Positions 7,149-53,531 are shown, counted from the stretch's first letter. The stretch is 64,000 nucleotides of DNA from Saccharofermentans sp. (GCA_024403855.1 JAKSRC010000008.1:4584-68583); one strand, 5' to 3'. Translations and numbers: made by a program. The notes: generated by a model not told the origin, from the letters alone.

Positions 7149-7237
7149 ATACCGGTCCCCTCTCTTATAGAATATTAATTATATTTGTGAAGCATATGGG
7201 CATAGCAAAAACTATTGCTCTTCTGCAAAACGCCAAG

Positions 7238-7266
7238 ATTATACATATAAAAATATACTTTGGCAA
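7238..7266 (-). promoter_or_regulatory. candidate sigma-A promoter for hppA
   Basis: On the minus strand: TTGCCA (7261-7266), a 17-nt spacer, then TATAAT (7238-7243). Confidence 0.55.
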
Positions 7267-7313
7267 TCAAAATAATACTGATTTTTCCGTAAGAAATAAC
7301 GATTTTTTATGAA

Positions 7314-8228
7314 TTACTCATTTATAAGAGAGTCAGTAAACAGAACTGGGTCAAAATCTGCCAGATCCTCGACGCTCTCACCTAAGCCTGCAAGCACAAT
7401 TGGCTTCTTGGACTGGTAAGCAACTGCGACAGCAACACCACCCTTTGCACTACCGTCGAGCTTTGTAATTCCAACATAATCAAGGCCGGTTACTTCGCCG
7501 AAACCTTCAGCCTGTATTACAGCATTCTGACCTGTTGTAGCATCAATTATAAGAAGTGACTTTATAGCAGCATCAGGAGCTTCTCTTTCGATAATGCGTC
7601 TGATTTTTGCAAGTTCATCCATAAGATTCTTCTTATTATGGAGTCTGCCGGCAGTATCTACGAGAAGAACATCAGTACCTCTTGCCTGTGCAGCGTGAAT
7701 CGCATCGAAAACGACGGAAGCCGGGTCTGCACCCTCCTGCTCCTGGGCAATTACAGCAGTACCGGTTCTCTCACCCCAGGTCTTAAGCTGACCTACAGCA
7801 GCCGCACGGAATGTATCGCATGCTGCCATAAGAACCTTTTTGCCTTCCTTCTTGTATCTTGCGGCGAGCTTACCTGATGTTGTCGTCTTACCTGTTCCGT
7901 TGACACCAATCATAAGGATGATATTGAGTTTGCCGGGAACGATCTCGACCTTCTGGGGTTCACCCAAAATCTCAAGCATTCTCTCCTTAACTGACTTCAT
8001 AACAGCTTCTTTACTGTCATCGCCAGTCTTCTTAATATCAGCCTTTACCCTGTCCATTATGTCTACACTGGCCTGAACACCGCAATCAGCTCTTACGAGG
8101 AGCTCTTCCAGTTCATCGAGCATATCCTCATCAAAATGACCGGTAGAAGCAGCAAGCTTAGTAATACTTCCTGCAAAGAAGTTTCTTGTTTTCTCAAGTC
8201 CCTTTTTAAATAAATCAGCTAATCCCAT
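7314..8228 (-). CDS. ftsY: signal recognition particle receptor FtsY
   Basis: Motifs GVNGTGKTTT, DTAGR and TKLDGSAKGG are present. It follows smc with a 1-nt overlap, as in Firmicutes. Confidence 0.95.
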   Translation of the reverse strand: MGLADLFKKGLEKTRNFFAGSITKLAASTGHFDEDMLDELEELLVRADCGVQASVDIMDRVKADIKKTGDDSKEAVMKSVKERMLEILGEPQKVEIVPGKLNIILMIGVNGTGKTTTSGKLAARYKKEGKKVLMAACDTFRAAAVGQLKTWGERTGTAVIAQEQEGADPASVVFDAIHAAQARGTDVLLVDTAGRLHNKKNLMDELAKIRRIIEREAPDAAIKSLLIIDATTGQNAVIQAEGFGEVTGLDYVGITKLDGSAKGGVAVAVAYQSKKPIVLAGLGESVEDLADFDPVLFTDSLINE

Positions 8229-11200: not shown

Positions 11201-11797
11201 CTCAAGTTCACCGAGGATATCATTTATTCTTACAAGATTATCCTGAGTGCTGTTAAGCTTTCTCTGCGCTTCATCCTTACGGACTCTATACTTGACGATA
11301 CCGGAAGCTTCTTCAATGACTCTTCGTCTGTCTTCGGATTTGGTTGAAAGGATATCATCAACTCTTCCCTGTCCAACAAGAGAATAACCATCTCGGCCAA
11401 GACCAGTATCAAGGAAAAGAACAGTTATATCCTTAAGTCTGCAGTTAACCTTATTAATCTGGTATTCAGATTCACCGGAACGGTAAAGTCTTCTTGTAAC
11501 GCAGATCTCAGGGAAAGCATAATCAATATGTCCGTCGGAATTATCGAAAGTAATAGATACTTCAGCATAGTTCATGGAACGTCTTGCTGACGTACCATTA
11601 AAGATGACATCTTCCATCTTGCCGCCACGGAGCTGCTTAACACTCTGCTCGCCCAAAACCCAACGAACGGCATCGCTGATATTGGATTTACCACTGCCGT
11701 TAGGACCAACCACGGCCGTAAGACCGCGGTCAAAATCAATACAGGTATAATCGGGGAATGATTTGAACCCCTGAAGCTCTAATTTCTTTAGATACAT
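8228..11797 (-). CDS. smc: chromosome segregation protein SMC
   Basis: 1189 aa. Walker A is GPNGSGKSN, followed by long coiled-coil arms and a hinge. The signature motif is LSGGE and Walker B is FVILDEVEAALD. Confidence 0.95.
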   Translation of the reverse strand: MYLKKLELQGFKSFPDYTCIDFDRGLTAVVGPNGSGKSNISDAVRWVLGEQSVKQLRGGKMEDVIFNGTSARRSMNYAEVSITFDNSDGHIDYAFPEICVTRRLYRSGESEYQINKVNCRLKDITVLFLDTGLGRDGYSLVGQGRVDDILSTKSEDRRRVIEEASGIVKYRVRKDEAQRKLNSTQDNLVRINDILGELEQRKGPLEEQAGKARKFNENYEELKKLETSLLVHKITEANNEMGDSAGLKEQLEKEIREREDEYLKLRKSHQEIIESSEALEIEIEEKRQELSDLTEFEHETQTDKKVAIERLNQTNQRIEELKSDMESTDETVEKLTVELNEKKEKADSLLQAANEAKLLSEELDKERLSKYEEYEAGRKEAGKADSKIKAKTEELFETRKKLTECQAGISALADKIKDMQEARTASESGKAELSTKLTEHEKALDEIKKIKGDVTNDIDVRNKKLEELRVRQTELNQFFEVNNRKLSAEESKLKTLKDIDRRKEGYQESVKRLMELSDTDRSVKRLMVGVLGDLIETDNKYETAIETALGNALHNVVTKSEADAAELIGILKDKRLGRVTFLPIENIRARYIDEDDLYKAKGVKGYIGVAADLVKSGRDLEDIIANLLGRILVADDLDSARIIASKTGRAYKVMTLEGDSVNPGGSLTGGSMRKTGAGTGILGRKAEIEALTKSVADLESKLSKSEDQRQEVDDEIGTLRRELAQLGEQLKFYQLEEVKAEGEYNNTKTRLEETEATLSNYDENMQSVSKSKIRLEEDQEELARIEREINSELSDFQEEIEEQQKLSEEQAAKLDEIVSKVREAASLAERKLTERSGILDLAGHIKKQIEEAKQGRDKFDSQIKECKDTVNSITQEINSFDAMLDENSKQQKVLEVEIAKLFEKRTSISSDLSSFGDRLAASGNEVSTLQARLNDHVAKYDKIIFEIDQNKNRLWEDYETTYDNIKDSVEPVTKIGEQTKRIQTLKNAIKALGPVNLGALQEFSELSERLEFMTKQRDDIEAAKKDLELVIDELLTKMRAEFNEHFNTINENFGKVFADLFGGGTAEIILSGDSDDVLERAIDIKAQPPGKNLQNLSLLSGGERCLTAIGLLFAIQELKPSPFVILDEVEAALDDVNITRFTDFVRRHSTKSQFILVTHRKGTMEACDQMYGVTMAERGVSKILSMELK

Positions 11798-11877
11798 CCT
11801 ATAATCAGTTCCGTAGTAAATCCTTAAGTAACCTAAGCATTATAACTCAAACAGCGCCTTTTTGTAGGACAATCTGT

Positions 11878-12594
11878 TCAGCAGCCCTCCGGATAAAGGC
11901 GCATATACTCCTTTAAACCCTTCTCGGCACACTTCTGCTCAGCGTCCTTTTTGCTATGTCCCGTTGCACTTGCAAGAAGCATATCATCAGAATAAACATT
12001 GACGTCGAATTCTTTCATATGTGCAGGGCCTCTTTCGCCAGTCACTTCGAATCTTATCTTGTGCTGGAAGCCTCTCGTCTGAGCGAGTTCAAGAAGCCTG
12101 CTCTTGTAATCCAGGAAAATCTCGCCGTTAACAGCCTTATGCACTGTTTCGGTAAGATTTTTCAAAATGCATTTCCTGGCCTGTTCGAATCCACCGTCGA
12201 AATAAACTGCAGCAATGACCGACTCAAAACAGTCAGCCAATGTGGAATCCTTGTCATTACCACCGCTCTGTGATTCACCCTTACCAAGGAGAAGATACTT
12301 GCCAAGATTCAGCTTTCTGGCAACTTCAGCAAAAGATTTCTCACAAACGGAGACACTTCTCATTTTAGAAAGATAACCTTCATCAGCCTGAGGCTTCAAT
12401 TCGTAGATCATCTGACCTACAACAACGTCTAAAACGGCGTCGCCGATGAACTCAAGTCTCTGGTTAGACTCCCAGTGTCCTCTTCCCTGCTCGAAAACAT
12501 ATGTCGTGTGTGTAAAAGCAGTTTCAAGAAGAGACTTGTCTATAAAGGTATATCCTAAATCCTGTTCTAATTTTGAATAATCCATCATAGTCAT
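11878..12594 (-). CDS. rnc: ribonuclease III
   Basis: The signature ERLEFIGDAVLD is present, plus a C-terminal dsRBD. The exact start is ambiguous (MTMMDY...). Confidence 0.9.
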   Translation of the reverse strand: MTMMDYSKLEQDLGYTFIDKSLLETAFTHTTYVFEQGRGHWESNQRLEFIGDAVLDVVVGQMIYELKPQADEGYLSKMRSVSVCEKSFAEVARKLNLGKYLLLGKGESQSGGNDKDSTLADCFESVIAAVYFDGGFEQARKCILKNLTETVHKAVNGEIFLDYKSRLLELAQTRGFQHKIRFEVTGERGPAHMKEFDVNVYSDDMLLASATGHSKKDAEQKCAEKGLKEYMRLYPEGC

Positions 12595-12680
12595 TATTTA
12601 CAGAAAACGGCCGAATGCATTCTATTGCACCCAGCCGCTAAAACTCATAGGTAATTCAGAGATTAATTATCTCCGGTATA

Positions 12681-12926
12681 TTAGCCCTCTGTGAGGCTCT
12701 GAATATACTCGACTGCATCCTTAACAGTAACAACCTTCTCTGCTACATCATCAGGGATCTCAACGTCGAATTCCTGCTCCATAGCCATAACGAGCTCAAC
12801 CATATCAAGAGAATCTGCGTTGAGATCATCAATGAAAGAGGAATCCTCAGAGATTGTATCCTCATCTACGCCGAGCTGATCAACGATCATCTGCTTAATA
12901 GAGTTAAAAAGTTCTTCATTTGACAT
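12681..12926 (-). CDS. acpP: acyl carrier protein
   Basis: 81 aa and acidic, with the phosphopantetheine attachment motif [11 protein letters not shown]. Confidence 0.9.
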
Positions 12927-13024
12927 AATATAGTACCTCCGTACAATTCTTGTTAAAACTACAAGATGTTTTTAATGTAATACTCGAAATTTGTCAATAG
13001 GTTATTTTGACTATCGAAGTATTT

Positions 13025-13648
13025 TTATCCTTTAAGATAATGCTTTCCTTTAAGAAGATAGTCAATACCTGAAATAATCGTCATAATGACACATATTCCG
13101 AAAAGAATGTCTCCAATTATGGTTATAGCGTTGATTTCCAAAGGATAACCATTGAAGCCCAAACGGAAAATCTCAAGAAGCAAAGGCTCAAACATAAGAT
13201 AAATAAGAGCAATCATCTGAGTGACTGTCTTTACCTTGCCAATCATTTTTGCCGCAATTACTTCACCTTTGGAAGCAGCAATCATTCTCAGACCAGAAAC
13301 TGCGAACTCTCTTAAGATAATGATCATTACGGCCCATACAGATATTCTTCCAAGGCCAATAAAAGCTAACATTATGCTTATTACAAGGATCTTATCGGCA
13401 AGAGAATCAAGGAATTTACCTAAATCGGTAATGAGATTATATTTTCTGGCAATTTTGCCATCAGCCATATCAGTCAATGATGCAATAATGAAAACACCGG
13501 CTGCAACAATCATTCCATACGAATTTATAAACTCATTCCAACCCTGAGGCTCCCATCCGAACAAACTGATTGGCAACATGAAAAGGAGCGTCACCGGTAC
13601 AAGAACGATCCTCGCGATTGATAATTTATTCGGAAGATTCATTGACAC
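13025..13648 (-). CDS. pgsA: CDP-diacylglycerol--glycerol-3-phosphate 3-phosphatidyltransferase
   Basis: The CDP-alcohol phosphotransferase motif DGKIARKYNLITDLGKFLDSLADK is present in a polytopic membrane protein. Confidence 0.85.
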   Translation of the reverse strand: MSMNLPNKLSIARIVLVPVTLLFMLPISLFGWEPQGWNEFINSYGMIVAAGVFIIASLTDMADGKIARKYNLITDLGKFLDSLADKILVISIMLAFIGLGRISVWAVMIIILREFAVSGLRMIAASKGEVIAAKMIGKVKTVTQMIALIYLMFEPLLLEIFRLGFNGYPLEINAITIIGDILFGICVIMTIISGIDYLLKGKHYLKG

Positions 13649-13713
13649 ATTCTCCTTTTAAAAAGATATGCCTTTTGGGCAACACACTTATAATACACAG
13701 ATTTCACGACCCG

Positions 13714-15090
13714 TCAAATCGTAACAGCGGTCATATCGTAATCATCGGAGCAATCGACAATCTTAACATCATAGAATTCACCGATTTTAAGTTCCTCTTC
13801 CTGTGAAGCAATGTAAATGAGCGGATCTACCTCCGGTGATTCTCCATAACTTCTTCCGATATAGAAAATACCGTCATCTGATACTGAGCAGATATTAACT
13901 TTAGTAACAGTTCCCAAACGCTTTTCTGTCTGCTCTTTGGAAATCTCTCTCTGAAGCTCATAAATCTCATCATATCTTCTCTGCTTAGTCTCATCGTCAA
14001 CCTGATCAGGCAGATCATAAGCCGGAGTACCCTCTTCAGGAGAGAAAATAAAACATCCTAATCTATCGAACTTCCACTTCTTTAAGTTCTCTTTCATTAT
14101 CCTGAAGTCTTCTTCTGTCTCACCAGGGAAACCTACCATTACAGTAGTACGGATTATAGCGTCAGGCATAGCCTTCCTTATCATCTCAAGTCTCTGAGTA
14201 ATAAGTTCAGAATTATCCCTTCTGTACATAGCCTTCAAAATCTTGTCAGAGCCATGCTGAATCGGAATATCAAGGTAGTGAGCGATCTTAGGATTATTTG
14301 CCATCTCTTCGATAAGCTCAGGTGTTATACCATCCATATAACCATACATAACACGAATAAGCTCAATACCATCAATATCAGACAAACTCTTTAAGAGCTT
14401 GTGCAAACAACGCTCATTATAAAGTTCAATACCATAGTTGGTCGTATCCTGAGCAGCAAGGACAATTTCTTTCACACCTTTAGAAGCAATAACTTTTGCT
14501 TCTTCAATGATGCTTTCAATCGGTCTGGATACAAATGTGCCTCTGATAAGAGGAATAGCACAGAAACTACATCTGTGGCGGCATCCTTCACCAATCTTAA
14601 GCCATGCGTATGCCTCTGTTGAAAGATCTCTATCCTCAATAAGGTGATCAAAACCACCTACGCCACTTGTCAGGTTGATCTTATCAGTAGTATCGACATC
14701 CATCTCAGCTTGAAGCTTTGCGACAACATCAACAATATCGCCGTAATGAGCAGTACCCAATACGGCATCAACCTCTGGAAGCTCCTTGAGGATATCTTCC
14801 GGATATCGCTGAGACAAGCAGCCTGAAACGATAATCTTTTTAACATTACCATTAGGCACTTTATAATCAGCAACTTCCAAAATGGTATCAATTGCCTCTG
14901 TCTTTGCAGACTCGATAAAACCACATGTGTTGATAACAACGATGTCAGAATCAGAGACATCATTGATTACGTTATATCCTGCATTTTTAAGGAGCTTGGA
15001 CATCGTCTCGCAATCAACGAGATTCTTAGAGCAGCCTAAAGCAAGAAGCGTAATCTTAATATTTGAATTAATGTTTGTTTTGTTTCCCAT
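13714..15090 (-). CDS. rimO: ribosomal protein S12 methylthiotransferase RimO (MiaB-family radical SAM)
   Basis: The N-terminal MTTase domain shows LGCSKN. The radical-SAM motif is CRHRCSFC and a C-terminal TRAM-like domain follows. The rimO-pgsA adjacency is typical of Firmicutes. Confidence 0.8.
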   Translation of the reverse strand: MGNKTNINSNIKITLLALGCSKNLVDCETMSKLLKNAGYNVINDVSDSDIVVINTCGFIESAKTEAIDTILEVADYKVPNGNVKKIIVSGCLSQRYPEDILKELPEVDAVLGTAHYGDIVDVVAKLQAEMDVDTTDKINLTSGVGGFDHLIEDRDLSTEAYAWLKIGEGCRHRCSFCAIPLIRGTFVSRPIESIIEEAKVIASKGVKEIVLAAQDTTNYGIELYNERCLHKLLKSLSDIDGIELIRVMYGYMDGITPELIEEMANNPKIAHYLDIPIQHGSDKILKAMYRRDNSELITQRLEMIRKAMPDAIIRTTVMVGFPGETEEDFRIMKENLKKWKFDRLGCFIFSPEEGTPAYDLPDQVDDETKQRRYDEIYELQREISKEQTEKRLGTVTKVNICSVSDDGIFYIGRSYGESPEVDPLIYIASQEEELKIGEFYDVKIVDCSDDYDMTAVTI

Positions 15091-41399: not shown

Positions 41400-41852
41400 A
41401 TGGAAACTAATAAGGATACTAAGAATACAAATGAATCCGCTTGGCATCTTACTGCCTACGATTATCTCTTAACTACTGCAATAGAAAAGAGAAAGGAAAA
41501 CATTTCCGTCATTGAGCTAAGCAAGAAACTTGATTACAAGAGATCGAACATATACAGAATGGAAAGCGGTTCAATTGACTTAAAGGTATCTACCTTCCTC
41601 AATTATCTGCACGGATTCGGATATCATTTAGAGATTATGAAAGACAAATCATCTTCTCTCAATGTCACAGAAGACAACGCAACTAATGTCGATATAACTG
41701 TCGAATCTGGCGATTTATCCTATATCATCGAGACTTTTGATGTTAATAAGCAAAAGTTCGAAAAAAGGCTCAGCAAGAAAACCAGATTAATGCTTTTAAG
41801 ATTTCTTCTTAAGGAATTCGAAGACGAGCTTCAACTAGAAGAAGACAAATAA
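41400..41852 (+). CDS. XRE-type HTH protein with an acidic C-terminal extension (operon gene 1)
   Basis: A GGAGG site lies 9 nt upstream. ISVIELSKKLDYKRSNIYRMESGSIDLKVSTFLNYLHGFGYHLEI fits a Cro/C1-type HTH. The C-terminal 70 aa are unassigned. Confidence 0.7.
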   Translation: METNKDTKNTNESAWHLTAYDYLLTTAIEKRKENISVIELSKKLDYKRSNIYRMESGSIDLKVSTFLNYLHGFGYHLEIMKDKSSSLNVTEDNATNVDITVESGDLSYIIETFDVNKQKFEKRLSKKTRLMLLRFLLKEFEDELQLEEDK

Positions 41853-41867
41853 TGGAGAAAAACTAAT

Positions 41868-42578
41868 ATGACACGTTTATTTGTAACCGGTGATCTTCAC
41901 GGAGATCACGACTGGGCTAAATTAAATACAAAAAACTTCCCAGTTCAGAAGGAACTAACAAAAGATGACTATTTAGTCGTGCTTGGAGATTTAGGAGCAG
42001 TTTGGGACGGCGCAAGAGGCGACAAATACTTGCAGAACTGGCACAGTTCAAAGAATTACACTACACTCTTTGTAGGTGGCAATCACGAGAACTATGACAT
42101 TTTGGATGCAATGCCTGTAACAGAATGGCAAGGCGGAAAGGTGCACATGGTGACAGATTCACTCATCCATCTTATGAACGGACAGGTTTATAATCTGTGC
42201 GGAAAGAAAGTTTTCGTCATGGGCGGAGCGGAAACATCTGATAAGGAACGTCGCAAGGAAGGCGTCTCCTGGTGGTCACACGAACTCCCAACTTCAGAGG
42301 AGTACGACGAGGCACTCGAGAATCTCAGCCTGCACGGCAACAAGGTAGATCTCATCTTCACTCATTGTGCGCCGGAGACGACTGTAACGAATATGTTCAT
42401 GCCAAAGATGTCCGTACGCAAGCTAAATGACCTGACATCCTTCCTTGATATGATCGCGCAGACCATAAGCTTCAATGACTGGTATTTCGGTCACTACCAC
42501 GAGGAGTCTGACAAGGGCAAGTTTCACCTGCTCTATAACAGCGTAATCGAATTACCGGAGGATAACGATAATGCATAA
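41868..42578 (+). CDS. calcineurin-like metallophosphoesterase, type 1 (operon gene 2)
   Basis: All metal-ligand blocks are present: GDLHGD, VVLGDLGAVWDG, GGNHENY, IFTHCAP and GHYHEE. Confidence 0.8.
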   Translation: MTRLFVTGDLHGDHDWAKLNTKNFPVQKELTKDDYLVVLGDLGAVWDGARGDKYLQNWHSSKNYTTLFVGGNHENYDILDAMPVTEWQGGKVHMVTDSLIHLMNGQVYNLCGKKVFVMGGAETSDKERRKEGVSWWSHELPTSEEYDEALENLSLHGNKVDLIFTHCAPETTVTNMFMPKMSVRKLNDLTSFLDMIAQTISFNDWYFGHYHEESDKGKFHLLYNSVIELPEDNDNA

Positions 42579-42999
42579 TCCTATACTCAGCATTTTTGAA
42601 GCTTTGGCAGTATCAGGCTTTCCAAATAAGGAAGATCTGAGGATCGAAGTCCTCGGTTGTATCAAAAGCTTTATCTCGTATTTTGACGATGTAGTAAATG
42701 AACAGATCTATTACTCCGCTACGTCAAAGGATAAGCAGGACATCTGCATTATGAAAGCACATGATGAAAGAAGGAGAAAAGCCCACGATCTTTGCATTGC
42801 TTCATGTATCCGACTTAACAGTATCTGCGATGAGATGAACATCGATCAGATATGTGATTTCGATGTCGAGGACAGAAAACAGGTTGCTGAATTTGCCGGA
42901 CTTATCGCCTGCGACCTGTATTTTACCAATATAAAGTGCGGAGAATCTCTAACGAACTGGTTAAACAATTCTCCGTTGAAGAAAGAAGGACAACCATGA
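42571..42999 (+). CDS. hypothetical protein (142 aa, operon gene 3)
   Basis: Has a GGAGGA Shine-Dalgarno site. It overlaps gene 2 by 8 nt and gene 4 by 4 nt (ATGA). No motif recognised. Confidence 0.65.
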   Translation: MHNPILSIFEALAVSGFPNKEDLRIEVLGCIKSFISYFDDVVNEQIYYSATSKDKQDICIMKAHDERRRKAHDLCIASCIRLNSICDEMNIDQICDFDVEDRKQVAEFAGLIACDLYFTNIKCGESLTNWLNNSPLKKEGQP

Positions 43000-43583
43000 A
43001 CTACTACATTTCAGATATGCACTTCGGCCATCAGAATATCCTTAAATACGATGCTCGACCATGGAAAGACGTACATTCCATGGAATATGACATGATCGAC
43101 TGGTGGAACTTGAAAATAACCGCCAAGGATGATGTATACATTCTCGGTGATTTCTGTTTCGGCGGTTATGATGATTGGAAAAGGATTCTTTCGCAGCTTA
43201 ACGGAAGAAAGCATCTTATCATTGGCAATCACGACTTAAAACAGTTCCCGTCGGATATAATCTCGCTCCTTGCTGAGCCTCCCGTTCCATACAAGGAGAT
43301 TACGGACGGCAGTTACAGAGTACTCATGTGCCACTATCCTTTGATTTCATATAACCATGACACCAATCCAAATACATTGATGTTTTACGGGCACGTCCAC
43401 AACACCAATGAATTCGTTGCGGTAATGGAATCTGTAAAGACAATGAAAGAATGCTGCCAAGCCGTAGGCTTTGATTACCGGGGGCGTTTATATAACTGCT
43501 GGGGCGGATTCTTCGGTTGGAAGCCTGCTTCTCTTATGGAAGTCCTGACAAATAAGTATTCAAATATCAGATTAAGAAAATAA
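42996..43583 (+). CDS. calcineurin-like metallophosphoesterase, type 2 (operon gene 4)
   Basis: The start is taken at MNYYISDMHFGH. Blocks present are SDMHFGH, YILGDFCFGG, IIGNHD, LMCHYP and YGHVHN. The sequence is clearly different from gene 2. Confidence 0.8.
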   Translation: MNYYISDMHFGHQNILKYDARPWKDVHSMEYDMIDWWNLKITAKDDVYILGDFCFGGYDDWKRILSQLNGRKHLIIGNHDLKQFPSDIISLLAEPPVPYKEITDGSYRVLMCHYPLISYNHDTNPNTLMFYGHVHNTNEFVAVMESVKTMKECCQAVGFDYRGRLYNCWGGFFGWKPASLMEVLTNKYSNIRLRK

Positions 43584-43595
43584 AGGGGGCATGAT

Positions 43596-44522
43596 ATGTC
43601 TGACTCTATGCTCGAGAAAGAATACAATGTATATTCAGAAAAATACGATATTCACGGCGTCGTAAAAGACTACGGCGTGGCAATTAAGCTTATCTTCACT
43701 TATGAAGGCAAAGAAGTTGAGATGGGGCTTTCGAGAGGTATCGATACCGATTACAAAAAACTCGGGAAAGACCTTATCGAATCTTATATTGAAAAGCTCG
43801 CTTCACCAAACGGAGAACGGAAACTCCAGCTCCACTATTGGTATATCAGCCCTCACGAGATCCATGGTACAACTTATGTTATAGGACACGGCATTGTTAC
43901 AGGGCACAAAAAACTCGCAAATTCCAACTTTATCTATACTTCCGCTGTCGAAGCTGTCTTTATCGATGAAATCAACGAAGAAGCTGTACTTACTACCAGG
44001 AACAGCATTTATCACTGTCCTCTCGCATACTTAAGATTCGATAAACAGGATGAACAGCCTGAACTGTTACCTGATTATGAGAGATTAAAAGAAAAGTATA
44101 AGGATACTATCTTATACCCTTCCATTGAACCTGGTAATGTTCTTTTGGCACTTGCGGATTTCTGTAAATACTACTTTCACTCCCTGTATTATGTGCCTGC
44201 GGATGCAAAAGAAATCAAGCCTGTCAAGTTCAGCGGATATGCACATATCGGAACATTTCAAGACAGCTATCTGATTCAGGCAGAAAACGGCATTGATCTC
44301 AGATATTTCCCGCACTATCAGAATATCGAATTCTACTCGGGAGAAACCAATGGTTGTCCGTTCTATATCGAGAACATCGGAAGCTCGGTCATTTATGCGC
44401 GCACTTGGGTAGGAACGATCAAGCTTGAGCCCGGCGACCGCAAAGAAGTAAATAAAGAAAATGCCGAAGATGAACCTCCGTCTCTCGCAAACGGAGATCT
44501 TTATCCGGCAGGTATTTTTTAA
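43596..44522 (+). CDS. hypothetical protein (308 aa, operon gene 5)
   Basis: Has an AAGGGGG Shine-Dalgarno site. No catalytic or binding motif recognised. Confidence 0.65.
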   Translation: MSDSMLEKEYNVYSEKYDIHGVVKDYGVAIKLIFTYEGKEVEMGLSRGIDTDYKKLGKDLIESYIEKLASPNGERKLQLHYWYISPHEIHGTTYVIGHGIVTGHKKLANSNFIYTSAVEAVFIDEINEEAVLTTRNSIYHCPLAYLRFDKQDEQPELLPDYERLKEKYKDTILYPSIEPGNVLLALADFCKYYFHSLYYVPADAKEIKPVKFSGYAHIGTFQDSYLIQAENGIDLRYFPHYQNIEFYSGETNGCPFYIENIGSSVIYARTWVGTIKLEPGDRKEVNKENAEDEPPSLANGDLYPAGIF

Positions 44523-44782
44523 TGGAAAGATCTTATATCAACAGACGTATTTCACAGAACAAAAAGTGGACGGGCAAAGACTGCAAAAGGCACAAGCACA
44601 GCTTTACCGACCCTTGCATTGTCCGCCTGACCGGTAACGAGAACAAACACATTGGAACCTCAAGCTACACTGCGCTGAAATGTGAGAAATGTAATTCTTT
44701 TACGAATCTTAAATTTGTATCCGAACAACCGAAAGGACTGCCTGTTCTCGTTTTCGAAAGACGCATTTTGCAATCACGTTAA
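44522..44782 (+). CDS. small basic Cys/His-rich protein, putative zinc ribbon (86 aa, operon gene 6)
   Basis: Junction with gene 5 is a TAATG overlap. CKRH...C and CEKC pairs suggest a C/H4 metal site. The N-terminus is very basic. Confidence 0.55.
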   Translation: MERSYINRRISQNKKWTGKDCKRHKHSFTDPCIVRLTGNENKHIGTSSYTALKCEKCNSFTNLKFVSEQPKGLPVLVFERRILQSR

Positions 44783-44810
44783 AGGATATTAAGTTCAAGG
44801 AATATATCGA

Positions 44811-45005
44811 ATGCGAAAAATAATAGTCCGAAATAAGATAAGATGTCTTGAATGTGGTGACGTAATAGAAAGCATATCTGTTCACGATTACAGAAAATGC
44901 TCCTGTGGAAAATGTGCCGTAGATGGTGGGAATGAATATCTAAGACGCACCTTCGCTTATGAAGGCGTTTACGAGGAATTAAGTGAGTTCGATACAGGAG
45001 AATAA
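44811..45005 (+). CDS. small zinc-ribbon protein (64 aa, operon gene 7)
   Basis: The motif CLECGDVI...CSCGKCAVDGG (CxxC ... CxCGxxxxDGG) is present. An AAGGAA site lies upstream. Confidence 0.6.
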   Translation: MRKIIVRNKIRCLECGDVIESISVHDYRKCSCGKCAVDGGNEYLRRTFAYEGVYEELSEFDTGE

Positions 45006-45010
45006 ATATC

Positions 45011-46513
45011 ATGGAAGATTTCGTAAAAACAGATAACATCGAATATAAGATCTATAAAGAAGCAAAAATCGTATTGAAGAAATCAGTCTGCGAGGCTTAT
45101 CCTCTGGGACGCATACTGATCTGCCAAGATTCAGGCGAAAATCTCAATGTTATCTGCGAGGTCAAAACAGATTTTACAAGTCCGAAAGCAGAAATCGAAG
45201 ATATCAAAAAGATCCCACTCCCCTCTTCAGATGAACGTTATATCTATATTGGTGTCTTTCCAAAGGAAACCAACGAAAGTCTTGTTGATGTAGAACGTCG
45301 AGTAATCGACAGCTTGGAAACTAGAGACCTGTTAGAATACAAAAACAGAATCTTCCAAAAGGATGAACCAACAGTAAAAAAAACGTTCTATATTATTGCT
45401 AATCTCGAAAAAGACACAGAGGATATATTCTTTCGGGATTATGGAATCACAAGCTTTAGAGAAAAGCTCAGACAGGCTTGCGAAATATCCTTTGCACAAA
45501 TTACAGCCGAGCCTAGCAACACACTGAAAGAGCAGATTCGTTCTTGGGCCAACAAAGTGTCTTTCAACGAGTTTGAAAAGGAGATAGAAAAGACGATTCA
45601 GGGACAACCAGAATTAAAATCAGTTGTCTTCCATGTTTATCACTACCTTTCAAACATTGCAAAGGAACTGCCCATTGATAAGCAGAGCATAATTCTCACG
45701 GGGCCTTCCGGATGTGGCAAAACCGAAACCTACAGAGCCTTAAAAAAGTATTTTGAAAAGGAGATTCCGCCACTTGTCGTAGATCTCATCGACACGAACC
45801 AGATAACCGGCGAGGGCTACAAGGGCAAGGATACCAATCACATAGTATCGGCTCTAAAGAAAGCCAAATCAGATGGCATAGGAATCGTGTTCCTAGACGA
45901 GTTCGATAAAAGGCTCATCCCAAGCCACTCGAGCCACGGAGACGATGTAAACAGAGAGATCCAAGGCCAGCTTCTTCTTGCAATAGAGGGCTGTGATCTT
46001 GATGGCATTGACACGAGTAACACACTCTTCATCGGCATGGGCTCCTTTAACGAGGCCAGAGAAAAAAGAAGACAGGAAAAGCACATCGGCTTTGGTGTTG
46101 AAAGAACGGATGCTGCTTGTGAACACTACTCTCCAATCACCAGAGAGGAGATGATAAAGCTTGGTGCATCCTACGAGCTCATAGGACGCTTTAGTCACGT
46201 AATAAACTACGGTCCCCTCTCTCCCGAGGCACTCGACAGGATAATCGACATGAGGGCTTCCGAGGTATCCGAGTCCTATGGAGTAAGGCTTTCCATAAGC
46301 GACAGCATGAGAGCCTTCCTCCATCAGAATTCCAATACGGAATTCGGAAACAGGCTCATTGAATCTCTGATCAGAGAGGCTGCGACCAGGGCCATGATAG
46401 AGATCCTTTCCGAAGAGATCAGCGCAAAGGAAATCGTGATAACGGGCAAGGATTCATATATCATAAAGAAGGCAGTTACAGAGGAACAACAACAGCAGAG
46501 GGAGGCATTATAA
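45011..46513 (+). CDS. ClpX-like AAA+ unfoldase with a novel ~200-aa N-terminal domain and no ClpX zinc-binding domain (operon gene 8)
   Basis: Walker A is GPSGCGKTE. A pore-1-like loop GEGYKGKD matches ClpX GYVG. Walker B is IVFLDEFDK. LFIGMGSF matches ClpX ILFICGGAF. An IGF-loop-like KHIGFGVE is present. ASYELIGRFSHV matches ClpX LIPEFIGRLPV. Confidence 0.8.
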   Translation: MEDFVKTDNIEYKIYKEAKIVLKKSVCEAYPLGRILICQDSGENLNVICEVKTDFTSPKAEIEDIKKIPLPSSDERYIYIGVFPKETNESLVDVERRVIDSLETRDLLEYKNRIFQKDEPTVKKTFYIIANLEKDTEDIFFRDYGITSFREKLRQACEISFAQITAEPSNTLKEQIRSWANKVSFNEFEKEIEKTIQGQPELKSVVFHVYHYLSNIAKELPIDKQSIILTGPSGCGKTETYRALKKYFEKEIPPLVVDLIDTNQITGEGYKGKDTNHIVSALKKAKSDGIGIVFLDEFDKRLIPSHSSHGDDVNREIQGQLLLAIEGCDLDGIDTSNTLFIGMGSFNEAREKRRQEKHIGFGVERTDAACEHYSPITREEMIKLGASYELIGRFSHVINYGPLSPEALDRIIDMRASEVSESYGVRLSISDSMRAFLHQNSNTEFGNRLIESLIREAATRAMIEILSEEISAKEIVITGKDSYIIKKAVTEEQQQQREAL

Positions 46514-47032
46514 ATGTTAGGACATCCAAAATATAAAAAGGGCGATATCGTTCGCTTCAATACCATGTCATACGACGACGCGCATCACGAAATAGAGCCA
46601 CATCCCGTTAAGTCGATCGGCGAGATATACATCGTGGATGCTTATGGTACCTTCGAGCAGGATGACGAGGTTTCTTATGACATCCTGATACCCGGAGTTG
46701 TCTTGGTAAAGCACTGCGTCGAAAGCACCATAACCGAGCTGATAAGAAGCGCTGACGATCCACATGAAGATGATTACGTTAAGTTTGACAAGGATACCAA
46801 CATAATGCTCGTTGCTGCCGTCTGTCTTCTGCTCGCCTTTGATGCCAAGGAGGGTCAGCGCGATTTGAATATGGTTAGGAAAATGCTCAATCTGAACTCG
46901 ACCATGATCTCAAGGGATGGCATAAAAAGACCTGGTCTGGAATGGCTCTTCTATGACTTCAAGGATAGAAATGGAAGCATTAATCTGGTTATAGATGCTT
47001 TTAAGGCATATAAGAAAACCAAGGATTTATGA
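46514..47032 (+). CDS. hypothetical protein (172 aa, operon gene 9)
   Basis: The ATG directly abuts the gene 8 stop, and a GGAGG site lies upstream. No motif recognised. Confidence 0.6.
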   Translation: MLGHPKYKKGDIVRFNTMSYDDAHHEIEPHPVKSIGEIYIVDAYGTFEQDDEVSYDILIPGVVLVKHCVESTITELIRSADDPHEDDYVKFDKDTNIMLVAAVCLLLAFDAKEGQRDLNMVRKMLNLNSTMISRDGIKRPGLEWLFYDFKDRNGSINLVIDAFKAYKKTKDL

Positions 47033-47287
47033 GACATGTTTTCTTCCGTAAATAAAAGAAAGGAGTCTGAGACTTGTTTGCTGCAGAATCATTTCCTTGA
47101 CAACACCTTCACAAGGAACCTCATAAGAATCCTTTTATGAGAGCAGCCCGGGCACTCGAGTTTTTGTTTTGCACAAACAAAAAAGATCGGTAACCAAAAA
47201 CGAACAGTTTTTGAGTGTATACCGTCGATTAAAAAATGAAATAACCGTAGCATTCCTATAGACTTATGAGTCTAGACACCACAATAC

Positions 47288-47984: not shown

Positions 47985-48029
47985 TGGTGATCGTGAGCGG
48001 ATTCGAACCGCTGGCCTACCGCTTAGGAG
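47985..48029 (-). repeat. DR1: 45-nt copy of the tRNA-Arg(CCT) 3' part (anticodon loop to CCA), distal att site
   Basis: TGGTGATCGTGAGCGGATTCGAACCGCTGGCCTACCGCTTAGGAG is identical to 49233-49277 and to 53455-53499. Confidence 0.9.
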
Positions 48030-48125: not shown

Positions 48126-48713
48126 TCATCCTATATATCTTTGTGAATAAGTTCCCGTAATCAATGCGATAATGTCTTCTTCATCCCAATACTCATTAGG
48201 AAAAATCGTAATGCTGTCCTTGTGTTTACGAATAATTCGGTATGGGGTATCCGTATTATCATACACATGAAGAATATCACATAAAGACATTAACTCTTTT
48301 ATGTTGGCAAGCGACTTGTAAAAACGTGTTTTGACTTTTTCTCTATCAACATCATGACCACCTTGCATGACACGTGACTCGACTCTTGCAACATTCAATT
48401 CAGGATCGGCAGTCAATACAAATACGCACTTAATAAAATACCCTTCAGCCTTTGATTTCCGAAGAATATCCATCTTGTATTTCGAAGATAAGACAGTCTC
48501 AAATGTAAGATCAGACTTTGCCTCTATAGAATCATATCGCTTTTTGTCAACAAACTTGGCAGCTTCCTCATTTTCCATTCCTGTTGAAGACACGACATCA
48601 TCCGCATTAGTGTATTCGCCAGCAATTTCGAAAAACTTGGTTATCGTACTCTTACCAGATCCATTAGGCCCGGCAAAACACAAGAGCATAGGTTTTCTTA
48701 AAGCGTTATCCAA
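48126..48713 (-). CDS. zeta-toxin/COG4185-like P-loop kinase/ATPase
   Basis: Walker A FAGPNGSGKST lies near the N-terminus. The size is about 195 aa. The start overlaps the upstream small gene (TTG at 48713; an alternative ATG lies 8 codons in). Confidence 0.65.
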   Translation of the reverse strand: MDNALRKPMLLCFAGPNGSGKSTITKFFEIAGEYTNADDVVSSTGMENEEAAKFVDKKRYDSIEAKSDLTFETVLSSKYKMDILRKSKAEGYFIKCVFVLTADPELNVARVESRVMQGGHDVDREKVKTRFYKSLANIKELMSLCDILHVYDNTDTPYRIIRKHKDSITIFPNEYWDEEDIIALITGTYSQRYIG

Positions 48714-48978
48714 TATTTACCTGCTTTCCATCCGAATCAACCAATACAGGTGCCTTTTTGCTCTTGTCATATACGGCCAGCGGCTTTTTACAAACTTTAG
48801 CTTTTCTCTTTGCGTTGCTGACAGCCTGCCTAGCTCTTTTATCCATATCTGCATCATCGGGAGAAAGAATTCCTGACTCAATCAACTTAGCGCTAGTAAC
48901 ACGCTTCTTGGCAACTTTGACTTCCATATTATCTATCTTCACAACATGCTTAATTACTTTTTTCTCTTCATCACTCAT
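48706..48978 (-). CDS. small basic protein, putative cognate antitoxin/partner (90 aa)
   Basis: Has an ATG start with a GAAAGGAAG site upstream. It overlaps the P-loop gene. No motif recognised. Confidence 0.5.
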   Translation of the reverse strand: MSDEEKKVIKHVVKIDNMEVKVAKKRVTSAKLIESGILSPDDADMDKRARQAVSNAKRKAKVCKKPLAVYDKSKKAPVLVDSDGKQVNIG

Positions 48979-49621: not shown

Positions 49622-52600
49622 TCATGTTCTTTCGGCAATAATCGTCGATACTCTATCATTAATTATCGGCAAAACAGCATCAAGACTCTTTTGATCCACA
49701 AAATATGGCGGAACTTCCTCTCTTATTACGATCAATACCGCAGGATCGTTATTATCAATTACAGATGCGGATAGAAGAACGTTCTTATAAGAAGTTATGA
49801 CAGTATCATCCAAAGGCTGAATAAAAGTATTATTCTTGTTAAACTTCTCAAGTGCTATTATAGCAGAAGATTCGAATGCAGATATGCTCATTGGATTGCT
49901 ATCTTGTGTTGCAACCACATTCTGAATCTCATCACTCATACAAATCCTGATGAATTCCCAAGCGCCATCGGCAACTACTGAAGGTGCACTAGCTGAAATA
50001 CCGATAGAAGTTTGTACTGAAATTACCGGTCCGCGACCATCAGTTGAAGGATATCCCAAAAGTGTCATGTTTTTTGCGTTAGACCCATTTTTATTTAAGA
50101 AATAGCGAAAATCTGGATACCAGGTATCCTCTGCATTGGTGCACATACTAAAAGATTTATCATTGACATTATTCTTTACATAGTCACATAGAGCACGAAA
50201 AGATTCGTTATCAAAATTGACTTTCTTTCCGTCAATACACGTGTCACTCATATATGAATACAGAGTGCAGATGGCTTCGAGTTGAGACTGATTCATCGGA
50301 TCAGCACCATTGCATATCTCATTAACAAATTTTGTATATTCATCAAAGGTAAAACCTAATTGGCCGTTACTGACATTAGATTTGTCTGTTTCTATACCTG
50401 ATACCGTAAAACTCACCGGCATATAGAGAAGTTTGTCATCAATCTTAGATGCACTTATTACATTAGAGAAATAGTCTGCTTCATTGATTCCATTTTTGCC
50501 TTTGATATATCTACTCAGATCCAGAAGATATTCTTCTGACTGGATCAGTCTGAAATCATCTGCATACAAGATTATGTCCGGGCCATTACCGGACAATATA
50601 TCGGTAACAAGTTGATTGCCGAGTGCTGATACCCCATTATAATATATGTCCATGATCTCATCATGATTTTTAGCATCACTGTAATCAATGTAATCAGCAA
50701 TACTGAGCTTATTTTCTAACAAGACAAAATAATCCCCGTTTGTCTCATTGAACACTCTGATTGCTTCACAGATCGAATACTCTAAATCAGTCCTTCCGAC
50801 TGTAGCTGCCGAAAGCATTGTCTTGCCGGCATTAGGATTCTTTTCAGTTTTCTCAAGAACGATAATCGTTGGAACGTATATTAGTTCTCTATCAAACTCA
50901 GTAAGCAAATCACTATCTTTTATCATTCCTGCAAAAACATACTTGTTGTCTTTAACGGAAAGAAGATCCATTCCGATCAGGGTTTTCCTGTTAACATTAC
51001 AGCTGTTATAAGAGAAAACTTCTTCCAATTCCTTTGATGCAAAATTTATGACTTTTACGCCGTATTGATCTTTAAAATATGTCTTTCCATCTAATGATGA
51101 CAGACTAGTTCCATACTTGATATTCTTGAGCCAAGAGTATTCTTCATCTTTGTTTTTTATTTCTCCGGTCTCAAGATTCAAGGAGATCAGACTCACATTA
51201 TTTGAAGAACAAACAAGAAGGATTTCTGTTTCTGAAACAGGTATATAATTTTTGAAATAGTTGATAGATGAAAAATGAGGATCGCCTATTAGATCAACAA
51301 ATTTGCTATTGCCCTCTTTACTGATCGCAAAAGATAAAGTGCCCGTCTTACGGTACCAGGATACTGTATAATCTCCAATAGTCCAGGAATCCTCATAATT
51401 AATAGGGTTTTCTTCTTGAGAATCATATGGAATGTTTTCCAACTCTTCTAATTCACCGACGGTTCCCGTTTCCGGATCTATCTTAACCAAATAACAATTA
51501 GTCTCATTACTGTTAACAGGACGCACAGTATCGTGCAGCCTGAGATCAATACCATCATCATTAATTGTAATGTTGTCAATTTCTCTATTGAAACGAACTT
51601 TGCTAATATCGATAGATTTTATTAACTCTCCGGTAAAAACATAATAATCAAGATTAATAAAATGCGAATCCGTTTTTGATTGTAAAGATCCTTCCGTTTC
51701 TATAAGGACACCATCTTTATAAGCTCCAAGAATATTTCTTGTGAAATAGTCCAACTTCAAATCTTTGTATTTATCGTCAATTTTAGTTATTTGAGAACTA
51801 AACCAAGTATCACTCGATTTGATCTTTCTAGTATCGGATGTATTTGCAAAAGAACAGCTTGTAAGTAACAATATAGTAGCCAGGCTAAATGCGAGAGCCT
51901 TTCGGCTGTTATCCGCCGGTTTCTTAATACTGATGATTCTCTTCTTCATCAATTGATAACCGCTTTTCATTCCGGTTGATAATGCAAAGAAACCTGTTAT
52001 ATTCGACTGCTGTTGTAGCATTTCTAATAGCGTTCTTGCATATTCTTTAGAAGAATCCGTTCCATAAGCTTTCATGACTGCTTCATCACACGCTAATTCA
52101 CAATCTCTGCCGGAAAGAATAAATGCTACCCAAATGACCGGATTGTACCAATTAAGGAAAAGAACCAAATATCTGATAAGCACCCACAAATGATCACCGT
52201 GTTTATAGTGACATGCTTCGTGACAAATTATGTATTCGCTTATATTTTCAGTACCATCATCAATATAGATTTTGTTAAACATAAGGAACGGTGTTTCCTT
52301 ATGTTTAATACCGTAGATTTTTAGTCCACTCAAAGGATCCTTGCCAAGATATTTTCTTTTTCGTTTGCAATACAATATAAAACCGATATTGTACGCTATC
52401 AGAACAACTACAAGAATAGCAGAAACGAAGTAACAGCAGTTCTGTAGTATAGATTCTATCTTTTTTGATTCATTTGCTTTTACCTTTGATACCGCCACAT
52501 AATTAACCGGTATCTGCGCTTGTTCACGGATTGTCTCATTTACAGGTATATTATTTCCAGGTATATTTGTCTGATTAACAGAAGCGTCGTTCTCTATTTG

Positions 52601-52858
52601 TAAATCTTCAACTATGACCGCCGGAGAATCATTATCTGTTACATCATATGTTGTAGTTTCCGTTTTTGAAGTAAAAATATTGTTCCAAATATCTGCTACC
52701 GGAACATCTATCTTTACAAATGGCATTAAAATCATATAAAGCGGAATGACAATCCAGAAAGCATATTGATGCTTATGGAGAATCTTTCCGTCAGATAAAG
52801 CCCTAATAACGATTATTACGAGTGTTAATATAGAAATTCCAATAAGATAGCGAAACAT
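49622..52858 (-). CDS. BlaR1/MecR1-family (peptidase M56) signal transducer with a very large non-PBP extracellular region
   Basis: 1078 aa. N-terminal TM segments and the zinc motif CHEACHYKHGDH (HExxH) are present. After a further TM segment comes about 740 aa of extracellular sequence. The last ~350 aa look like an ABC solute-binding protein (SGNGPDIILYADDF, GAWEFIRICMSDEIQ). Confidence 0.75.
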   Translation of the reverse strand: MFRYLIGISILTLVIIVIRALSDGKILHKHQYAFWIVIPLYMILMPFVKIDVPVADIWNNIFTSKTETTTYDVTDNDSPAVIVEDLQIENDASVNQTNIPGNNIPVNETIREQAQIPVNYVAVSKVKANESKKIESILQNCCYFVSAILVVVLIAYNIGFILYCKRKRKYLGKDPLSGLKIYGIKHKETPFLMFNKIYIDDGTENISEYIICHEACHYKHGDHLWVLIRYLVLFLNWYNPVIWVAFILSGRDCELACDEAVMKAYGTDSSKEYARTLLEMLQQQSNITGFFALSTGMKSGYQLMKKRIISIKKPADNSRKALAFSLATILLLTSCSFANTSDTRKIKSSDTWFSSQITKIDDKYKDLKLDYFTRNILGAYKDGVLIETEGSLQSKTDSHFINLDYYVFTGELIKSIDISKVRFNREIDNITINDDGIDLRLHDTVRPVNSNETNCYLVKIDPETGTVGELEELENIPYDSQEENPINYEDSWTIGDYTVSWYRKTGTLSFAISKEGNSKFVDLIGDPHFSSINYFKNYIPVSETEILLVCSSNNVSLISLNLETGEIKNKDEEYSWLKNIKYGTSLSSLDGKTYFKDQYGVKVINFASKELEEVFSYNSCNVNRKTLIGMDLLSVKDNKYVFAGMIKDSDLLTEFDRELIYVPTIIVLEKTEKNPNAGKTMLSAATVGRTDLEYSICEAIRVFNETNGDYFVLLENKLSIADYIDYSDAKNHDEIMDIYYNGVSALGNQLVTDILSGNGPDIILYADDFRLIQSEEYLLDLSRYIKGKNGINEADYFSNVISASKIDDKLLYMPVSFTVSGIETDKSNVSNGQLGFTFDEYTKFVNEICNGADPMNQSQLEAICTLYSYMSDTCIDGKKVNFDNESFRALCDYVKNNVNDKSFSMCTNAEDTWYPDFRYFLNKNGSNAKNMTLLGYPSTDGRGPVISVQTSIGISASAPSVVADGAWEFIRICMSDEIQNVVATQDSNPMSISAFESSAIIALEKFNKNNTFIQPLDDTVITSYKNVLLSASVIDNNDPAVLIVIREEVPPYFVDQKSLDAVLPIINDRVSTIIAERT

Positions 52859-52859
52859 A

Positions 52860-53216
52860 TCAATCCTCTTCGATTATTCTACGAAGTTCCTCTAACTGCT
52901 CTTTAGAAAGTTTGTCTGAACACTTTAGATTGGAGATCAGCAATCCAACATTACCGCCATATACTTTGTCCAGAAATGATGTTGTCTCCTCTAGTTCAGC
53001 TTCCGTTCTATCTACTGCAGCACGGAACCATTTGGTTCTCCCCTCCTGATCATAGGAAACCAGTCCTTTTTCAACCATACGATTAAGCAAAGTTATAATT
53101 GTCTGCTTAGACCATCCGGTCTTTGCATCTAAGGCTCTTGTAAGTTCCATTAAAGTCATGGATTTATTATCCCAAAGACAATTGATGATCTTCCATTCTG
53201 AATCAGTTAAACGCAT
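52860..53216 (-). CDS. blaI: BlaI/MecI/CopY-family transcriptional repressor
   Basis: 118 aa. LTDSEWKIINCLWDN..MTLMELTRAL....GWSKQTIITLLNRMVEKGLV is the winged helix of the penicillinase-repressor family. Only 1 nt separates it from the blaR1-like start. Confidence 0.85.
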   Translation of the reverse strand: MRLTDSEWKIINCLWDNKSMTLMELTRALDAKTGWSKQTIITLLNRMVEKGLVSYDQEGRTKWFRAAVDRTEAELEETTSFLDKVYGGNVGLLISNLKCSDKLSKEQLEELRRIIEED

Positions 53217-53454: not shown

Positions 53455-53531
53455 TGGTGATCGTGAGCGGATTCGAACCGCTGGCCTACCGCTTAGGAGG
53501 CGGTCGCTCTATCCAGCTGAGCTACACAATC
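53455..53531 (-). tRNA. trnR: tRNA-Arg (anticodon CCT), CCA encoded
   Basis: The reverse complement is GATTGTGTAGCTCAGCTGGATAGAGCGACCGCCTCCTAAGCGGTAGGCCAGCGGTTCGAATCCGCTCACGATCACCA. The acceptor stem is GATTGTG/CACGATC and the anticodon stem is ACCGC/GCGGT, with loop CTCCTAA. Confidence 0.9.

Follow-up and report, generated by a model that had tools for sequence, protein, structure and literature searches.

A ClpX-clade AAA+ protein with a new N-domain and a retained IGF loop in a mosaic operon of Saccharofermentans sp.

What does a ClpX-like motor do in a mosaic operon when the parts by which ClpX chooses its substrates appear to be missing? The specificity of ClpXP is usually explained by the zinc-binding domain of ClpX, its RKH loops and adaptors. 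We addressed this question for gene 8, an open reading frame (ORF) of 500 amino acids at 45011..46513 with an AGGAG motif 9 nt upstream of its start, encoded in a 64,000-nt stretch of DNA from Saccharofermentans sp. (GCA_024403855.1 JAKSRC010000008.1:4584-68583), referred to as the window (W). Coordinates are window positions unless a locus is named, and all genes and motifs of the operon lie on the + strand; labels such as L001 and L002 denote genomic loci with members of the gene 8 family, and labels such as P0002 denote proteins. An earlier note on this DNA had described gene 8 as a ClpX paralogue preceded by two small Cys-rich ORFs, g6 and g7, and ORF calling recovers all three ORFs as described. 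In our reading, to which we assign a rough probability of 0.55, gene 8 is an accessory, horizontally moving ClpX-clade AAA+ unfoldase that is retargeted by its N-domain and works through host ClpP.

The assignment of the motor to the ClpX clade is consistent across methods. Among NCBIfam models, ClpX ranks first for gene 8 (PRK05342, 1.3e-22, 80.3 bits; TIGR00382, 59.4 bits), followed by HslU with 41 bits and ClpA with 37 bits. The best PDB sequence matches obtained with phmmer are all ClpX (top match 2.4e-15), at an overall identity of about 25%. We built an AlphaFold2 model of gene 8 on 83 homologues, which reached a mean predicted local distance difference test score (pLDDT) of 91; in a Foldseek comparison of this model with the PDB, the best 50 matches are all ClpX chains, with E values to 2e-17 and target template-modelling (TM) scores of 0.7-0.76. 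The database search returned 753 homologues at E<=1e-3 among 8000 candidates scored, and the conservation of motifs was judged in an alignment of 83 homologues at 31-91% identity.

The elements of the ClpX motor can be followed along this alignment. Linker helices and a ClpX-like box before the P-loop (45521..45685, residues 171-225) align with the ClpX 'VIGQ...AVYNHY' helix, with W179, G198 and Q199 conserved. Walker A, GPSGCGKT (45701..45724, residues 231-238), has invariant P232, S233, G234, G236 and K237, and Walker B, VFLDEFDK (45887..45910, residues 293-300), has invariant D296, E297, D299 and K300. Between them lies the pore-1 loop EGYKG (45812..45826, residues 268-272), the equivalent of ClpX GYVG: HMMER places TGEGYKGKD of gene 8 opposite TEAGYVGED of ClpX, G269 and G272 never vary, 82 of the 83 sequences have F or Y at position 270, and the third motif position is mostly Lys. 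The Arg-finger box ELIGRF (46175..46192, containing R393) aligns with ClpX PEFIGRL and keeps E389, G392, R393 and F394 throughout; the sensor-2 motif GNR (46346..46354, containing R448) aligns with ClpX GARGLR, with G446 and R448 invariant. Judged by these alignments, gene 8 has every catalytic element of the ClpX motor together with an aromatic pore-1 loop. The match to the ClpX ATPase module that the earlier note had drawn block by block is thus borne out by the NCBIfam, PDB sequence and Foldseek rankings, with motifs that are invariant or nearly so.

Gene 8 nevertheless scores at only about a quarter of the equivalog cutoffs of the ClpX models (80.3 versus 359 bits for PRK05342 and 59.4 versus 370.75 bits for TIGR00382). 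No match to the zf-C4_ClpX family of Pfam was obtained in gene 8 at E<=0.1, in agreement with the earlier statement that the C4 zinc-binding domain is absent. A second loss, which that note had missed, concerns the RKH loop: at the site of this loop, gene 8 carries GCDLDGID (45989..46012) and is about 15 residues shorter than ClpX. The gap falls between EG and IDT in every ClpX alignment, opposite 'vppqGgrkhphqef' and MVNVPPKGGRKHPDQ, and the region is short throughout the family. Since the zinc-binding domain and the RKH loop are both missing while the IGF loop is kept, gene 8 has lost both built-in specificity elements of ClpX and retained the docking element. A search with tblastn found no ClpP within 8 kb of 44 family loci nor in the 64-kb window, the only hit being beside a canonical Prevotella clpX (L045). 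Two gene 8 paralogues, 82% and 45% identical to gene 8, lie 13 kb apart in one metagenome-assembled genome (MAG), Oscillospiraceae SIG422. The low scores, both missing elements, the lack of a linked clpP and the two copies in one MAG agree with the earlier description of gene 8 as a ClpX-clade paralogue distinct from the housekeeping protein.

The retained element is the presumed ClpP-docking loop, KRRQEKHIGFGVERTD (46064..46111), with I359-G360-F361 at 46085-46093. In HMMER alignments, HIGFG of gene 8 stands opposite LGFG of Mycobacterium tuberculosis ClpX and IGFG of Listeria ClpX; in a BLAST alignment it stands, in the same register, opposite VGY of a canonical Prevotella ClpX (L045). The latter served as a control, being encoded directly downstream of clpP and carrying both the zinc domain (CSFCG...CEEC) and the GGRKHP loop. 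Across the family, 82 of 83 sequences have I, F, L, V or M at position 359, G360 is present in all 83, and F, L, I or Y occupies position 361 without exception, while the residues flanking the tripeptide vary freely. In the AlphaFold2 model, the IGF segment lies between two helices and is the part of the motor predicted with the lowest confidence (pLDDT 57-75). A conserved hydrophobic-Gly-aromatic motif in a flexible and otherwise variable loop has the character of a docking peptide, and this is the main argument for coupling to ClpP. Judged by alignment and by the secondary structure of the model, the tripeptide lies in the true docking loop, as the earlier note had assumed: three independent ClpX alignments and the one with the clpP-linked protein agree on this, and the refuting case named in that note, an IGF-like tripeptide outside the loop, does not apply. 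We infer that gene 8 would couple to ClpP through this loop.

Several observations weigh against this reading. Compared with that of the aligned ClpX proteins, the IGF loop of gene 8 is shorter by 4-7 residues, two family members carry the deviant tripeptides RGI and FGL, and the RKH deletion strips contacts from the top of the pore. The family could also keep the IGF loop by descent and act without ClpP. No PADLOC defence model matches gene 8 beyond a weak and partial match to DolB. The operon lies just to the left of the leftmost att copy described below, outside the att-bounded segments, and the 64-kb window contains no integrase; the mobility of this copy of gene 8 is thus only putative. 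Finally, hexamer formation, ClpP binding and proteolysis are putative for gene 8.

ClpX alone remodels MuA transpososomes, and its chaperone activity without ClpP is established. By analogy, gene 8 might be a ClpP-independent remodelling or disassembly ATPase, in which the N-domain grabs a complex, the motor pulls it apart, and the IGF loop is kept by descent or for another partner. The missing linkage to clpP at all 44 family loci, the deleted RKH loop, the shortened IGF loop and the deviant tripeptides of some members would all fit such an activity. It is hard, however, to explain without a docking partner why the hydrophobic-Gly-aromatic pattern is kept in 82-83 of 83 sequences that range from 31 to 91% identity, and ClpP is the only known partner of the ClpX IGF loop (PMC9035409). 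We consider ClpP-independent remodelling unlikely, though it has to be taken seriously, and retain the unfoldase that works through host ClpP.

The N-terminus of gene 8 is the candidate specificity module. The N-domain (45011..45520, residues 1-170) takes the place of the zinc-binding domain. Modelled alone with AlphaFold2, it yields a strand-rich alpha/beta topology with a pLDDT of 90 and a predicted TM score of 0.81. Foldseek finds nothing significant for this model in the PDB (best E 0.015, TM 0.18) or in BFVD (best E 0.03), and there is no Pfam match. A phmmer search over 1.84 billion representative proteins returned only eight matches at E<=1e-3, of which three share the architecture of about 500 amino acids; another three, with 152-195 amino acids, are short proteins or fragments. 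The N-domain is accordingly a confidently predicted fold with no detectable relative, and the earlier description of it as novel holds in Pfam, PDB, BFVD and the whole protein library alike.

We surveyed the N-termini of the best 120 cluster representatives of the family. The gene 8 N-domain is present in 42 of them and another N-terminus in 36, the rest falling into 14 further sequence clusters; 22 of the 120 consist of the motor only, with essentially no N-terminal extension. As far as sequence clustering can tell, one constant motor is combined across the family with at least 16 unrelated N-termini, and in some members it stands alone. Genome matches are all from Clostridia, the gene 8 type occurring in Oscillospiraceae/Ruminococcaceae and most others in Lachnospiraceae. 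Public records hold hundreds of members, annotated only as 'AAA family ATPase', and our literature searches retrieved no description of the family and nothing relevant on ClpX-like defence proteins or DUF7695.

Recombination between heads and motors can be seen within single genes. P0002 is 98% identical to gene 8 in the N-domain and 84% in the motor, and P0003 shows the reverse, with 62% and 97%, respectively. In the comparison with the L004 homologue (82% identity), the synonymous divergence (dS) is 1.13 over residues 1-170 and 0.20 over the motor. The mosaic identities and the contrast in dS together show that heads were exchanged by recombination near residue 225. The ratio of nonsynonymous to synonymous divergence (dN/dS) is 0.24 for the N-domain and 0.06 for the motor, and both are under purifying selection. 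We rejected positive selection as the cause of N-domain divergence, since dS is also about six times higher there and recombination explains the difference. Swapped N-termini on a constant motor, recombination at their boundary and a dN/dS of 0.24 in the N-domain fit the earlier suggestion that this domain acts as a specificity module.

Pfam recognises only three of the surveyed N-termini, each as a TraG/VirD4-like segment (PF02534). They belong to P0057, P0074 and P0082, and members of this type are encoded in L013 (7062-9194) and L014. There they adjoin a protein of 1492 amino acids (875 in L014) with a faint, sub-threshold NPHP3_N P-loop match. A link to conjugation, considered in view of these N-termini and of a faint VirD4-like match of g9, was dropped: the neighbours in L013 and L019 are UvrD, DegV, a WYL regulator, GGDEF-EAL and GlgB proteins, which are ordinary chromosomal genes. 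In the syntenic Lachnospiraceae/Eubacterium loci L019, L021, L025 and L035 (around 6100-10800), a family member is encoded close to a WYL-WCX regulator, in L019 and L035 as its immediate downstream neighbour, and ahead of a second, unrelated AAA ATPase of 497 amino acids, after which come GGDEF-EAL and NYN proteins.

The genomic setting of gene 8 bears on its possible role. Nine close-set ORFs, spaced from an 8-nt overlap to a 28-nt gap, form an operon at 41400-47032, and the DNA of this operon is a mosaic drawn from two operons separated by 13 kb in SIG422 (SVIZ01000001.1; L004 and L005). Window positions 41864-44572 match L005 at 92% and positions 44760-44965 match it at 89%, separated by a 187-nt insertion relative to L005 (44573-44759) that may be either a small mobile element or the trace of a deletion on the SIG422 side. 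Positions 45014-47098 match L004 at 86%. The mosaic junction, at about 44965-45014, falls exactly between g7 and gene 8. To the right of the operon lie ParE/Phd, a zeta-toxin pair and BlaI/BlaR1, in a region that also contains tRNA-Arg(CCT) at 53455-53531. Exact 44-nt copies of the 3' half of this tRNA occur at 47986, 49234 (to 49277) and 53456, where none is expected by chance. The leftmost of these att-like scars (47986..48029) bounds the hotspot next to the operon; the segments bounded by them hold a zeta-toxin-like gene with a small partner (48126-48978) and BlaI/BlaR1 (49622-53216).

A related locus carries the mobility gene that the window lacks. L001, a rumen metagenome contig, is syntenic with the window beyond tRNA-Arg (Rnf genes 68-97% identical) and has a tyrosine integrase next to the same tRNA. 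Its gene 8 homologue, 0.8 kb from the integrase, is preceded by a metallophosphoesterase (MPE) and a helix-turn-helix (HTH) gene, and a type I restriction-modification system lies beyond. In L002, the homologue and an MPE lie between a ParE pair upstream and, directly downstream, a complete Eleos LeoBC/LeoA system (10293-14144; E values of 1e-102 and 8e-120). A phage-flavoured mosaic operon beside toxin-antitoxin pairs and a tRNA hotspot, with relatives beside an integrase, a type I restriction-modification system and Eleos, suggests that gene 8 takes part in the conflicts in which mobile elements, phages and host engage, or helps to maintain the island; this suggestion rests on the genomic setting.

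In the mechanism that we propose, the gene 8 protein would form a hexamer, its N-domain would select one or a few specific targets, and the motor would unfold these and feed them into the host's own ClpP; host ClpP is proposed because no clpP is linked to the family. The activity would serve in a conflict of mobile elements, phages and host, or in the maintenance of the island. The earlier proposal of a private unfoldase is thus kept in part: the ClpX-like motor with a new head stands, whereas the zinc ribbons play no demonstrated part. As a tentative generalization, and at odds well below even, the family may constitute a hitherto unrecognised modular system by which mobile elements of gut and rumen Clostridia target proteins for proteolysis, in which the motor hijacks host ClpP, swapped heads aim it at phage, rival-element or host-defence proteins, and a linked MPE adds control in the gene 8 clade. 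Evolution has here removed both built-in specificity elements of ClpX, kept the ClpP-docking loop and attached unrelated heads. If docking to ClpP is true, the family offers (i) a natural case of retargeted degradation on mobile DNA, showing how elements reprogramme host proteolysis, and (ii) a scaffold for engineered degraders.

To look for partners, we clustered 640 neighbouring ORFs from 48 loci, which revealed no partner common to the whole family. The only recurrent neighbour in the gene 8 clade is a small MPE of the type of g4 (42996..43583), a calcineurin-like protein that matches phrog_547 at 1e-35 and PDB 1xm7 (aq_1665) at 1.5e-9. Eight of 12 independent loci (W, L001, L002, L004, L007, L051, L052 and L054) have a g4-like gene no more than 1.5 kb away on the same strand. 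Its placement varies: in L001 it immediately precedes the AAA gene, and in L002 and L052 it immediately follows it. Gene 8 and the g4-type MPE might therefore form a two-gene functional unit, possibly anti-phage or anti-defence, with the MPE as effector or regulator; recognition could, for example, depend on phosphorylation, by a logic comparable to that of McsB/YwlE/ClpC. The linkage persists although the AAA proteins of the N-domain clade are only 42-52% identical and the gene order changes, a g4-like MPE was never seen in roughly 100 loci of members with other N-termini, and several of the loci lie among defence genes. Conversely, four clade loci (L003, L006, L053 and L055) have no MPE, the loci are small in number and might descend from a common island, the pair is not recognised by any PADLOC model, and both MPEs of the operon match common phage phosphoesterase PHROGs and may be independent cargo. 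We regard such a unit as rather improbable; it would in any case be compatible with ClpP docking.

The second MPE of the operon is g2 (41868..42578), a phage-type protein that matches PF00149 at 6e-8 and phrog_1649 at 4.8e-35, and for which a PDB sequence search was empty. The operon thus holds two different calcineurin-like phosphoesterases with strong phage PHROG matches, and the SIG422 operon in L004 has three. The proteins of about 310 amino acids encoded upstream of the AAA gene in L002, L003 and L005 were considered as a further candidate and set aside, as they are unrelated save for lipoprotein signal peptides. An unannotated gene pair, encoding proteins of about 310 and about 450 amino acids, occurs near gene 8 homologues in L002 (4285-6586) and L004 (13134-15390), and its larger gene alone, cut at the locus edge, in L005 (16629-17489); the pair has no PADLOC match.

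The two ORFs directly upstream of gene 8 had been suggested as specificity factors, and g6 and g7 could in principle replace the missing zinc-binding domain in trans and act as adaptors. Both are Cys-rich and belong to the same operon, and g7 (44811..45005, 64 amino acids) is a genuine DUF7695 domain (PF24749, 3e-27). Neither of them, however, matches the ClpX zinc-finger family at E<=0.1, and neither is found beside the gene 8 homologues in L001-L007 or L051-L055; the gene immediately preceding the closest homologue, in L004 (82% identity), is g5-like, and a zinc-ribbon gene is absent there. The g7 protein is a short form of a protein of 261 amino acids, of which DUF7695 forms the N-terminus in L005 (10272-11057, - strand). 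Its 90% cluster contains both forms, with the longer one in the majority and the short one recurring in several assemblies. Homology of g7 to L005 stops at about 44965; g7 belongs to the other SIG422 operon and is next to gene 8 solely by virtue of the recombination junction at about 44965-45014. As for g6 (44522..44782, 86 amino acids, CxxH...CxxC pattern), most of it is formed by the 187-nt insertion at 44573-44759; it is an orphan without a match in family searches, the single member of its 90% cluster, and doubtful as a gene. An adaptor role of g6 and g7 is therefore very improbable, and the proposal that the zinc ribbons act as specificity factors is not sustained. The only other co-occurrence of DUF7695 and AAA genes that we saw is on a short metagenome contig, L123, where 1.6 kb separates a DUF7695 gene (1256-1432, 43% identity to g7) from a distant AAA relative (3062-3874, 28%) downstream of it.

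The remaining genes of the operon are as follows. The first, g1 (41400..41852), encodes an Xre-type HTH protein that matches phrog_1373 at 1.4e-7 and, with 21.2 bits against a Pfam cutoff of 23, HTH_3 at 3e-4; homologues of g1 head the operons in L001, L004, L005 and L053. The 142-residue product of g3 (42571..42999) has a 98% identical counterpart in L005 and is possibly DUF3232-like, an assignment based on the NCBI name of a cluster homologue with Pfam support of only E=0.021. A protein of unknown function with 308 amino acids is encoded by g5 (43596..44522); it is 95% identical to a protein in L005 and 54% identical to one in L004, which is encoded directly upstream of the AAA gene, and it has no Pfam match and an empty PDB sequence search. 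The last gene, g9 (46514..47032), begins with the very nucleotide that follows the stop codon of gene 8 and encodes a protein of 172 amino acids, also of unknown function, for which family searches gave no match and a PDB sequence search was empty. It is 88% identical to the protein encoded at the same position in L004, and L023 and L084 also encode a g9-like N-terminus, there 0.4-2 kb downstream of the family member. Across the window, GC skew is positive in the operon only, corresponding to an opposite orientation, and a scan for promoters and terminators gave no excess of sites over shuffled sequence. The rest of the window we take to be ordinary chromosome, with SMC, FtsY, RNase III, ACP, RecA, FtsK and Rnf, named by ORF size and N-terminus only.

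Among defence systems, the nearest model is DolB, and gene 8 might be the DolB-type ATPase of a Dodola-like system. DolB (6.7e-11, 40 bits) and PDC-M37B (4.9e-9) are the best PADLOC matches of gene 8, and motor-only relatives also match DolB, at 2e-15 and with 31-55 bits. These matches, of 30-55 bits, are limited to the P-loop half of the motor (profile positions about 105-244 of 375), the ClpX models give higher scores along the whole module, and neither DolA nor any other PADLOC match was found among the operon genes or neighbours, so that this assignment is hardly credible. That gene 8, whose best-matching family is ClpX, is simply the organism's housekeeping ClpX is close to refuted by its 80 bits against a cutoff of 359, its missing zinc-binding domain and RKH loop, its position away from clpP, tig and lon, its patchy distribution with two copies in one MAG, an N-domain confined to eight representative clusters, and a mosaic operon in a variable region.

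Comparison with known systems places the preferred reading, an accessory unfoldase working through host ClpP, more precisely. Gene 8 shares with ClpX the single AAA+ module of the ClpX/HslU clade (TM about 0.75), the order of Walker A, pore-1 G[YF]xG, Walker B, pore-2 region, IGF loop, Arg finger and sensor-2, and a tripeptide at the homologous position of the IGF loop. It differs from ClpX in lacking the C4 zinc-binding domain and the RKH loop, in the IGF loop shortened by 4-7 residues, in a pore-1 Lys where ClpX has Val, and in its context, being unlinked to clpP and encoded with a swappable N-terminus in a mosaic operon of a variable region. HslU belongs to the same AAA+ clade and is the second-best NCBIfam match (41 bits in two partial stretches), with PDB matches of about 1e-10 to 1e-8. 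HslU has an inserted I-domain and no IGF loop, and docks on HslV by its C-terminus, whereas gene 8 has an IGF loop and no I-domain, with no insertion after pore-1.

DolB, identical to PADLOC PDC-M37B, is likewise a stand-alone Clp-type AAA_2 ATPase, similar in size to the motor-only family members, but gene 8 matches it weakly and over the P-loop half only, and no DolA (DUF6414) occurs in any locus examined; PDC-M37 overlaps Dodola (PMC11811056). ClpX-like motors are also found on mobile genomes of phages, such as Pseudomonas jumbo phages of the PA5oct type, and phrog_4339, a family of unknown function, gives an E value of 1.7e-29 for the C-terminal half of gene 8. The ClpX-like genes of phage isolates are, however, about 27% identical to gene 8, the same distance as cellular ClpX, and BFVD has no match for the gene 8 N-domain. 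An origin from phages or plasmids was rejected, as isolate phages and plasmids hold only relatives at this ClpX-like distance of about 27%; in IMG/VR, only two contigs carry a close family member, at 42%. ClpC and ClpE resemble gene 8 in logic only, combining a ClpP-docking motor with specificity from an N-terminal domain or an adaptor (McsB, MecA); they are two-ring Hsp100 proteins with a known N-domain fold, whereas gene 8 is predicted to be single-ring and ClpX-like, with an unrelated N-domain.

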